Shown one piece after another: positions 2,729 to 5,934 of a stretch of DNA of 64,000 nucleotides (positions within the stretch are counted from its first letter, which is position 1; each line of letters begins with the position of its first letter). Made by a program: the position numbers and the translations under genes. The notes under the pieces were generated by a model. The model made no database searches. It worked only from the letters and a program-made list of their open reading frames with translations, and had not been told where the DNA came from. The DNA is taken from NCBI RefSeq assembly GCF_055900595.2, contig NZ_CM148325.1; one strand, 5' to 3'.

Positions 2729-3538
2729 CTAATTCGGGCGCTCACAAAGTGGGGCTAAATATTCATATAACGTTGCTGACGAAAAGGAGACATCGCCACA
2801 GGCACGTACGGGCATCACTGGCATTAACGCATTACAAATAACCATCTCATCTGCCTGCAACGCCTCTTCCAGAGTGGCTTGCACTTCGACAAGCTGATAA
2901 GAGGATTGTGCCAGTAAACGGATACAGAATTGTCGCATAATGCCGTTAACACCTGCCTGCTCTAGTCGCGGCGTATAAACTACATTGCCCTTCCGCCAGA
3001 ACAAATTAGCCGCACAGCATTCCGTAACCCACCCTTCGCTGTCAAGGACCAGCGCCTCATCAGCGTTTGTCTGCTCAAGATGAGAGCGGATCAATACTTG
3101 TTCAAGCCGATTAAGATGTTTAATACCTGCAAGATGAGGATTGCGCCCCAGCCGCACCGGGCTTAGCGCCAACATCATCCCCTCGTTACGCAAACGATCG
3201 TAATGTGCAGGATAAGCCGTAACGGAGAGAATCCGCGTTGCCGGTCCGCTGTTCAATGTGCTGTACCCTCGCCCGCCACTACCGCGACTGATCACGACCT
3301 TCAGCACACCATTCTGCTGTTCTGCTGCCAGCGTTTTCATCTCTTGTTCAAGCTGAGGCCAGAAGTCACAGGAAATCATCAACCGCTGACAAGCATCCTG
3401 TAGTCGCTGGATATGTGCCGATAACAAACTGACTTTACCGTCGATAACTCTGGCGGTGGTAAAACAACCATCACCAAACTGCGTTGCTCGATCGCTTACT
3501 GCCAGCGATTCCTGCTTATGACCGTTAATTAAGAACAT
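2729..3538 (-). CDS. pabC: aminodeoxychorismate lyase
   Basis: 269 aa fold-type IV PLP enzyme; AAGGAG ribosome-binding site upstream of ATG at 3538. Confidence 0.93.
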
Positions 3539-3645
3539 ACCGGCTCCTTATCAGAGAATTGTTAGTGTGGCAGCATGTTCACTACAGAACAAGTCGGAAT
3601 AAAAGCTAATAAATATCCTCCGGCATAGCCGGAGGTTTTTCAAAT

Positions 3646-4358
3646 GCGCCTGTAAGGCTCTGTTACCAGCCGCGCCCTAACAGGCGCATACGATCTGACA
3701 TTTGCATTCAACTTCGTTACTTACGGCCCGTAAACGGGCTGCCCGGATATGGAATCGATAACTGCTCCCCCATTTTATCCTCTTCAAGCTGGTGCTTTAT
3801 GTAGTCCTGTATCTTCGCCGTGTTCTTACCCACCGTATCGACATAGTACCCTCGGCACCAGAACTCCCTGTTTCTGTATTTGAATTTCAAATCCCCAAAC
3901 TGCTCGTAAAGCATCAGACTGCTTTTCCCTTTCAGATATCCCATAAAGCCGGATACGCTCATTTTGGGTGGGATTTCCACAAGCATATGGATATGATCTG
4001 CGCAGCACTCTGCTTCCAGAATCCGTACGCTTTTCCACTCACACAGCTTTCTCAAAATACTGCCTATCGCCCTACGCTTCTCTCCGTAAAACGCCAGTCT
4101 TCGGTATTTCGGCGCAAAAACTATGTGATATTTACAGTTCCAGCGGGTGTGCGCTAAGCTCTTTTCGTCCCCCATTGGGACCCCCTTTTGATTTCTTGTT
4201 TGACACTTGCAGTTGCCAGACCGCAAGGTGTTTTAACAAATCAAAAGGGGTTTTAATAACTGGCTCAAAGCTGAAAGCTTTCCGGAACCCCCAGCCTAGC
4301 TGGGGGTTTTCTGTGCACAAGAAAAAAGGCCCGCAAGCGGACCTTTTATAAGGGTGGG
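3646..4358 (-). mobile_element. IS200-type insertion sequence (IS200/IS605 family, tnpA only); boundaries approximate (about +/-40 bp)
   Basis: Intact Y1/HuH transposase ORF, stem-loop sequestering its ribosome-binding site (around 4180..4240), perfect palindrome AACCCCCAGCCTAGCTGGGGGTT at 4284..4306, imperfect hairpins near both ends. The fabF-pabC gap is 830 bp here versus roughly 120 bp as I recall for K-12. Confidence 0.75.
3717..4175 (-). CDS. tnpA: IS200 transposase TnpA (Y1 HuH single-strand transposase)
   Basis: 152 aa from MGDEKSLAHTRWNCKYHIVFAPKYRR, with HIHMLVEIPP HuH motif and catalytic-Tyr region; ORF track begins 17 codons upstream. Confidence 0.9.
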   Translation of the reverse strand: MGDEKSLAHTRWNCKYHIVFAPKYRRLAFYGEKRRAIGSILRKLCEWKSVRILEAECCADHIHMLVEIPPKMSVSGFMGYLKGKSSLMLYEQFGDLKFKYRNREFWCRGYYVDTVGKNTAKIQDYIKHQLEEDKMGEQLSIPYPGSPFTGRK

Positions 4359-4368
4359 AAATGACAAC

Positions 4369-5640
<1,272 letters not shown>

Positions 5641-5697: not shown

Positions 5698-5934
5698 TTA
5701 CGCCTGGTGGCCGTTGATGTAATCAATGGCAGCCTGAACGGTGGTGATTTTCTCAGCTTCTTCGTCCGGAATCTCAGTATCAAACTCTTCTTCCAGAGCC
5801 ATTACCAGCTCAACGGTGTCAAGAGAATCCGCGCCCAGGTCTTCAACGAAAGAAGCATTGTTGGTAACTTCTTCCTGCTTAACGCCCAGCTGTTCGCCGA
5901 TAATTTTCTTAACGCGTTCTTCGATAGTGCTCAT
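5698..5934 (-). CDS. acpP: acyl carrier protein
   Basis: 78 aa, [18 protein letters not shown] with DSLD phosphopantetheine site. Confidence 0.98.

Follow-up and report, generated by a model that had tools for sequence, protein, structure and literature searches.

Insertion sequences (ISs) of the IS200 group are known from Salmonella (IS200), Escherichia coli (IS200C) and Yersinia (IS1541) as elements of 707-711 bp that carry a single 152-aa Y1 transposase and create no target duplication. In Salmonella IS200 the inverted repeat at nts 12-34 forms a strong bidirectional rho-independent terminator (Ellis 2015, PMC4513863), which halts about 85% of the transcripts impinging from upstream (Ellis 2017, PMC5435999) and as a bidirectional terminator shields tnpA from read-through (PMC4513863, PMC5435999). 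Here we describe a 711-bp member of this group inserted between fabF and pabC in a 64,000-nt stretch of contig NZ_CM148325.1 (assembly GCF_055900595.2), the whole of which is referred to here as the window, and assign the hairpins around it to host or element. The window copy shares the single 152-aa Y1 transposase and the absence of target duplication with its relatives; its left-end terminator hairpin, 5' untranslated region (5'UTR) stem-loop and art200 region match Rfam STnc490, and its right-end hairpin and tail are identical to those of E. coli and Y. pestis copies. Nothing essential differs, and the copy is a sequence variant. The insertion itself is ordinary, known biology, with a near-identical IS copy already in RefSeq; the copy in strain KE55, at another locus, is 99.9% identical to it.

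The closest mechanistic models are IS608 and ISDra2, whose two ends carry near-identical subterminal hairpins that are bound by TnpA, while cleavage is guided by a short sequence on the 5' side of each hairpin foot (PMC5027513). [quoted passage not shown] In inserting after terminator stem-loops, the closest functional analogues are group IIC (bacterial class C) introns, which enter just past the stem-loop of rho-independent terminators or attC-like inverted repeats and recognize structure together with a very short sequence (PMC7923331). These introns differ in being retroelements, with a ribozyme and a reverse transcriptase, and enter DNA by reverse splicing; they are unrelated to the Y1 transposase in sequence and chemistry. 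Repetitive extragenic palindromic (REP) sequences and the bacterial interspersed mosaic elements (BIMEs) built from them are intergenic GC-rich hairpins recognized in single-stranded form by Y1 enzymes related to IS200 TnpA, the REP-associated tyrosine transposases (RAYTs, TnpA-REP); extragenic palindromes are described as insertion sites of the REP-targeting ISs ISPpu9 and ISPpu10. IS1397 is another REP-targeting IS. The targets in REP systems form sequence families that share a conserved tetranucleotide, unlike the sequence-unrelated hairpins in the IS200 survey reported below.

The IS lies directly behind the fabF terminator

The interval 3450..4450 was compared by megablast with 5,426 complete E. 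coli genomes. Most of these matched in the flanks only (about 290 nt), 220/5426 matched from end to end, and independent IS copies at other loci had only 3608..4325 in common with the interval. E. coli Z0117EC0005 (L131, NZ_CP098223.1), which matches the window at 100% identity across the adjacent 5 kb, has an empty site: its left flank (310 nt) and right flank (300 nt) show 100% identity to those of the window and meet with 0 nt in between. The K-12 empty site, in minus orientation, reads ...GGTCCGCTTGCGGGCCTTTTTTCTT|AGCTTTTATT or, followed further, ...GGTCCGCTTGCGGGCCTTTTTTCTT|AGCTTTTATTCC.... Exactly 711 bp have been added, with no target duplication and no deletion. One TT is common to both junctions, and the empty site fits an element at 3608..4318 and one at 3610..4320 equally well. 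We favor 3608..4318 (minus strand, which is the tnpA-sense or top strand), because about 47 independent copies all have the right-end tail ...GGAGGATATTTATT unchanged, with flanks that diverge right after it, and because the target motif in this family remains with the left flank (PMC5027513). The insertion is thus placed directly 3' of the T-tract of the fabF terminator, TTTTTTCTT|GTGCAC.

A preliminary description, made from the letters of the window, had reported three strong stem-loops in this interval and had left open which of them were native. All three were found again in the sequence, in a terminator scan and among inverted repeats, within 2-5 nt of the positions it gave (3620..3650, 4284..4306 and 4329..4350), a shift that is immaterial. 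Alignment with empty sites and with independent IS copies assigned each one to host or element, and bore out the expectation of one native fabF terminator and one or more IS hairpins, of which there are in fact two. The assignment also settled, as had been foreseen, both the insertion point, right after the T-tract, and the state of the fabF terminator, which is intact by sequence.

The stem-loop nearest to fabF (hairpin 3; 4324..4347, or 4319..4347 with its T-tract, minus strand) is by its sequence the native intrinsic terminator of that gene and also the integration target of the IS. It is assigned to the host because it is found in the empty sites, being identical in K-12 and Z0117EC0005, and for the same reason we rejected the idea that it was carried by the IS. 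Its core, GGTCCGCTTGCGGGCC at 4343..4328, can be extended to 4347..4324 and is followed by the T-tract TTTTTTCTT at 4327..4319; on the coding strand the hairpin lies about 21 nt past the stop codon of fabF. It folds with a minimum free energy (MFE) of -13.3 kcal/mol (z -3.6 against dinucleotide shuffles), and the terminator scan matched 4347..4324 with the tail TTCTTGTGCA. In its GC-rich 8-10 bp stem, 4-nt loop and T6-containing tract it is like a canonical rho-independent terminator, from which no differences were detected.

The other two stem-loops, at 4286..4308 (hairpin 2, left end) and 3617..3635 (hairpin 1, right end), are assigned to the element because they are missing from the empty sites and found in every IS copy elsewhere. 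A generic terminator scan, which returned 3 sites vs. 1.6 +/- 1.3 in shuffles, is not significant alone; we accept the hairpins as real because they are conserved, not because of this count. We consider very probable the account as a whole, which comprises this division of hairpins between host and element, the precise position of the insertion behind the terminator and the proposed choice of a terminator as the site.

Terminator-like hairpins at other insertion sites

Nine independent E. coli sites all have a GC-rich hairpin and T-run directly before TT|GTGCAC, and at six E. coli loci, that of the window included, annotation places the end of a co-oriented gene (fabF, paaY, carB, plaP, lom or a hypothetical gene) 30-74 nt before the left end. 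One genome per species was scanned with the exact 22-nt left-end hairpin, which gave 120 loci from Yersinia pestis (IS1541), Vibrio, Edwardsiella, Brenneria and metagenome-assembled genomes (MAGs) of Desulfovibrionaceae, Bacillota, Oxalobacter and Saccharibacteria; the survey comprises 125 unique left flanks. Under a strict contiguous-stem rule, a terminator-like motif abutted the left end in 104/125 flanks (83%), vs. 6/462 control segments taken 150-390 nt away from insertion sites and 10/625 shuffles, and most of the 21 flanks failing this rule still show imperfect hairpins by eye. The 40 nt upstream of the junction had a mean MFE of -17.8 kcal/mol vs. -7.2 kcal/mol in controls (p = 5e-58). 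T occupied position -1 in 125/125 sites and -2 in 124/125, with T at -4, -5 and -6 in 86%, 97% and 78% and G/C-rich sequence farther upstream, giving the consensus TTTNTT; in 108/125 sites the distance from the last G/C pair of the stem to the junction was 5-9 nt. The target hairpins are unrelated in sequence to one another and have in common a GC-rich stem and a T-run. The right end of the element itself (hairpin plus 9 nt, ATATTTATT) matches this description.

The fabF/pabC site appears to have been used more than once. IS200C occupies the identical nucleotide in 220/5,426 genomes (L003, NZ_CP022229.3), and differs from the window copy at 26/711 positions (3.7%), while the flanks of the two differ at 5/290 (1.7%). 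The site is empty in the closest relatives of the window strain, which match it at 100% identity over 5 kb. A single ancestral insertion shared by the window strain and the 220 genomes was rejected as the simplest reading, given these empty relatives and the greater divergence of the IS than of its flanks. The data suggest independent insertions of two IS200 variants into one hot spot, with gene conversion between IS copies as an alternative.

Terminator adjacency could also arise through selection, if the element inserted after any T-rich motif and the copies behind terminators, harmless and shielded, were the ones that persisted. We think this unlikely, though it deserves serious weight. Rare IS200 insertions within genes are on record (hisD984), the IS608 target needs merely a tetranucleotide, and a 2025-26 preprint, which found terminator-like sequences over-represented immediately upstream of ISs and most strongly for IS200/IS605, reads them as a niche limiting transposase expression. 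Under such selection, however, any position downstream of a terminator would do, yet the junction is nucleotide-precise, with an invariant TT at 5-9 nt from the stem. In the window only 25/216 T-rich runs have a preceding hairpin, and outside long open reading frames (ORFs) 8/49 (about 16%), vs. 83-98% of insertion sites. The preprint's signal is strongest for IS200/IS605, though selection acts on all IS families. In addition, the rule holds at about 45 IS1541 sites in Y. pestis, and the same fabF/pabC nucleotide was apparently hit independently by two IS200 variants. Other ISs in the Y. pestis genome often disrupt genes. The survey evidence favors active site selection by the transposition machinery over survival of harmless insertions.

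Several observations accompany the survey. In Y. pestis NCTC5923, IS1541 copies stand in tandem, 710 nt apart (L085, 349..370; L086, 2660/3370; L088, 12604/13314). Their junction, ...CCGGAGGATATTTATT|GTGCCC..., joins a right end directly to the next left end, and the same junction would be present in an excised circle; the arrangement is consistent with the right end serving as a target mimic, or with tandem amplification. The exact 22-nt left-end hairpin occurs in MAGs of very distant taxa (L011-L083: Bacillota, Peptococcaceae, Mailhella/Desulfovibrio, Oxalobacter, Saccharibacteria and Elusimicrobiaceae), in which the left-end tips vary (GTGAAACG, GGTTAAAAG, GTATGAAG and others) and many matches lie at contig ends. 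These occurrences indicate either horizontal transfer over a wide range or contaminated or mis-binned MAGs. At L037, L073, L075-L077 and L113 the left-end hairpin is present without a right-end-type hairpin at the expected 660-690 nt downstream; these could represent truncated elements, lone left ends or derivatives of greater length. At L004 (yqjG) and L007 (sbcB/plaP) the right end of the IS abuts the stop codon of a convergent gene, so that the IS separates this gene from a shared bidirectional terminator; the right-end hairpin with its bottom-strand T5 would supply a replacement.

The two ends of the element

The left-end hairpin (4286..4308, minus strand) has the form AACCCCCAGC-TAG-GCTGGGGGTT on the tnpA-sense strand and AACCCCCAGC-CTA-GCTGGGGGTT on the + strand. 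Its stem of 10 bp is perfect, as the earlier label of a perfect palindrome implied, but the arms enclose a 3-nt loop and the repeat is no strict palindrome. It folds with an MFE of -18.7 (minus) and -20.7 (+) kcal/mol (z -3.1/-3.7), is the counterpart of the terminator repeat at nts 12-34 of Salmonella IS200, and coincides with helix 1 of Rfam STnc490 (RF01405), which matched 4308..4185 on the minus strand over its full length (1-124; 146.4 bits, E 1.4e-31, gathering score 56). On the + strand RF01405 scores merely 19 bits. STnc490/art200 has been given as antisense to tnpA (Ellis 2015, PMC4513863); the Rfam model seems to represent the sense 5'UTR with the left-end terminator, and the strand of the hit should not be taken for that of art200. 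Other matches (ctRNA_p42d, asX2 and STnc490 on the + strand; E 0.4-0.9, far under their gathering scores) were set aside as chance.

The right-end hairpin (3617..3635, minus strand) is CCTCCGGC-TAT-GCCGGAGG on the tnpA-sense strand; on the + strand it reads CCTCCGGCATAGCCGGAGG (CCTCCGGC-ATA-GCCGGAGG) and is followed by TTTTT at 3636..3640. With an 8-bp stem and 3-nt loop, it folds at -15.5/-15.9 kcal/mol (z about -4.2) and was matched by the terminator scan on both strands. The T-runs that had been reported after hairpins 1 and 2 on the + strand are present, but they are the complement of a conserved GAAAA(A) on the tnpA-sense strand; through them both hairpins are terminator-like also in the outward or antisense direction. 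At the right end this is GAAAAA at the 5' side of the hairpin foot (3636..3641, minus; 'tgaaaaa' is invariant in all copies), and the tail beyond the hairpin, ATATTTATT at 3608..3616 (minus), is equally invariant in the about 47 independent copies, its last six nucleotides, TTTATT, matching the target consensus TTTNTT. At the left end the tip comprises GTGCAC and AGAAAA (4307..4318, minus, from the sequence and the inverted repeat listing), of which GAAAA is kept in all left-end variants while 6-8 nt of the tip vary. Across this tip the host T-tract is complementary to the A-run of the IS (AGAAAA), forming a junction palindrome, TTTTCTGTGCA/TGCACAAGAAA at 4307..4324, centered on GTGCAC; such complementarity is expected if the A-run guides recognition of a T-rich target. 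The element tips themselves, GTGCAC... and ...TTTATT, are not inverted repeats, and the hairpins lie 11 nt (left) and 9 nt (right) from them.

Read on the tnpA-sense strand, the two ends are GAAAA-CCCCCAGC-TAG-GCTGGGGG and GAAAAA-CCTCCGGC-TAT-GCCGGAGG. The hairpins differ by two base pairs, both fully compensated, and the right-end hairpin of a Vibrio copy carries a further compensatory change, CCACCGGC/GCCGGTGG. Both are unique within the 64-kb window and unaltered in other E. coli IS copies, with the left-end hairpin present also at the 120 loci of other taxa. Judged by their sequences, the two IS hairpins are homologous modules. By analogy with IS608 and ISDra2 we infer that both are TnpA recognition hairpins and that the conserved A-runs would be guides for T-rich cleavage sites.

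It is also conceivable that the end hairpins act at the RNA level only, insulating tnpA, and that TnpA recognizes instead the two longer repeats, the 5'UTR stem-loop and an inverted repeat at 3644..3689. The roles documented experimentally for IS200 are just such RNA-level ones, and each end does possess a second inverted repeat. We nevertheless regard this as improbable. Both end hairpins are built as one module (GAAAA, then a stem of 8 bp, CCNCCNGC, with a loop that begins with TA) whose two differing pairs are compensated, and near-identical hairpins at both ends, here 11 and 9 nt from the tips, are the pattern of IS608; the two long repeats are dissimilar, and the one at 3644..3689 loses two pairs without compensation in IS200C.

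Neither of these longer structures had been among the hairpins of the preliminary description. The 5'UTR stem-loop (4182..4250, minus; 16-nt arms CCCCTTTTGATTTCTT/AACAAATCAAAAGGGG) was recognized as an inverted repeat, as helix 3 of RF01405 and as the counterpart of the IS200 5'UTR structure at nts 69-138, which sequesters the Shine-Dalgarno sequence (Ellis 2015, PMC4513863). The antisense small RNA art200 of IS200 is 90 nt long with its transcription start site at nt 153/154 (Ellis 2015, PMC4513863), corresponding to about 4166..4255 on the + strand and ending in the 5'UTR stem and TTTT (4251..4254); coordinates of both were transferred by homology and hold to +/- 2 nt. The second repeat, ATGCGCCTGTAAGG/CCTAACAGGCGCAT (3644..3689, minus; 14-nt arms, 18-nt spacer), lies between the tnpA stop codon and the right-end hairpin. 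In IS200C its arm positions 3652 and 3689 are the two that differ without compensation, and a conserved structure here is doubtful.

A proposed target rule and its weight

As in IS608 and ISDra2, TnpA would bind the two subterminal hairpins in single-stranded DNA, and the A-run 5' of each hairpin foot would guide cleavage after a T-rich site, TTTNTT in the target on the left and TTTATT at the right tip. At the replication fork, the element would then be joined into single-stranded DNA. Judging by the 125 surveyed sites, the family would select a GC-rich hairpin with a T-run and insert 5-9 nt after the stem, always after TT, and such selection would be the reason that a host terminator adjoins the two IS hairpins. 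The strand on which this would occur is consistent with the position of the top strand on the lagging-strand template, a rule of the IS200/IS605 family (PMC5027513). Because each of the eight 8-kb bins of the window shows a negative GC skew on the + strand, the tnpA-sense strand, which carries the T-run target, would be the G-rich lagging-strand template, with the direction of replication taken from the skew. The more specific proposal, that IS200-group transposases use intrinsic terminators as structure-specific sites (hairpin plus TTTNTT on the lagging-strand template) and that the right end is a mimic of the target, stands in our judgment on an even footing with its negation. If true, it would account for tandem copies, for the reuse of identical sites, for the harmlessness and persistence of these insertions, and for the decades in which the target has been undefined.

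A number of points weigh against this account. The boundaries of the element keep a 2-nt ambiguity, and the sequence beyond the 9-nt T-tract of the terminator was altered from AGCTTTTATT to GTGCACAGAA. The survey loci were selected by one exact 22-nt left-end hairpin, about 45/125 of the sites come from one Y. pestis genome, and survival of harmless insertions could explain part of the terminator association. The model elements also fit imperfectly: the hairpins of the window IS are perfect and those of IS608 imperfect, and in IS608 double-stranded DNA 5' of the target gave no stimulation of integration in vitro. In the literature covered, binding of TnpA to either IS200 hairpin was not found, and the second stem-loop at the left end or the second inverted repeat at the right end could conceivably be the recognition structure.

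An explicit terminator-target rule for IS200 was not found in the accessible literature, a coverage outside which several older IS200/IS1541 papers fall. A 2010 paper mentions in passing an IS1541 between pheL and pheA in Yersinia, a position that is behind the attenuator terminator. In the literature covered, the association with terminators is described in aggregate only, and we do not claim novelty for the rule.

The fabF-pabC locus with the IS

In the window acpP (5934..5698), fabF (beta-ketoacyl-ACP synthase II; coding sequence 5610..4369, stop codon 4369..4371, from the ORF list and the RefSeq annotation of matching records) and pabC (coding sequence 3538..2729, from the ORF, annotation and exact flank identity with the empty site) all lie on the minus strand, and mltG and tmk come after pabC. 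The IS separates fabF from pabC, and its tnpA shares the strand of these two genes. From fabF onward, this strand reads stop codon, host stem-loop with TTTTTTCTT, GTGCAC, AGAAAA, left-end hairpin, 5'UTR stem-loop and tnpA, then GAAAAA, right-end hairpin, ATATTTATT, 69 nt of host sequence and pabC. The sole long sense-orientation ORF of the element is tnpA (4175..3717, minus), which encodes an intact 152-aa Y1 HUH transposase with the motifs H61-I-H63, Y125 and Q129 and matches Pfam PF01797 (Y1_Tnp) over model positions 2-121/121 (E 7.9e-37). Y125 is the catalytic residue that was mutated by Ellis 2015 (PMC4513863). The IS belongs to the IS200 group and shows every defining feature of it that can be tested.

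The insertion could in principle harm fabF termination or pabC expression, by replacing the distal context of the terminator or displacing a pabC promoter, and the sequence past the 9-nt T-tract has indeed been replaced. We consider such harm quite improbable. The stem and the complete 9-nt T-tract of hairpin 3 are unaltered by the insertion, as are the 69 nt between the right end of the IS and the pabC ATG when compared with the empty site, and an IS at the same position in 220/5426 complete genomes indicates that it is tolerated. From its sequence, fabF termination is predicted to be intact. A promoter scan gave no sigma-70-like match in these 69 nt, nor anywhere in 3300..4700, so that its silence is uninformative. 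The genes downstream include tmk and holB, which are essential. A last alternative, that hairpin 1 is a host terminator or REP-like element upstream of pabC before which the IS ends, has virtually no chance of being right: read on the + strand, hairpin 1 has the look of a classical terminator, and it is not part of the tnpA ORF but 82 nt past its stop codon; yet it is missing from K-12 and from the isogenic empty site, which refutes this idea, and all IS copies at unrelated loci of E. coli, Yersinia and Edwardsiella have it, with an identical tail of 9 nt.

Implications

For annotation, these results fix the boundaries of the IS within 2 nt, leave fabF with its own terminator and pabC with its 69-nt upstream region, and indicate that hairpin and T-run motifs beside an IS200 come in threes, one from the host and two from the element. 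With fabF termination predicted to be unaffected and terminator-like hairpins facing both ways at each end, the insertion would be close to transcriptionally neutral. A defined target would account for the rarity of gene inactivation by IS200-type elements and would permit hot spots of IS200 and IS1541 to be predicted for the typing of Salmonella, Yersinia and E. coli. It would also permit integration of IS200 to be reconstituted in vitro, in a transposon family that is notoriously dormant.

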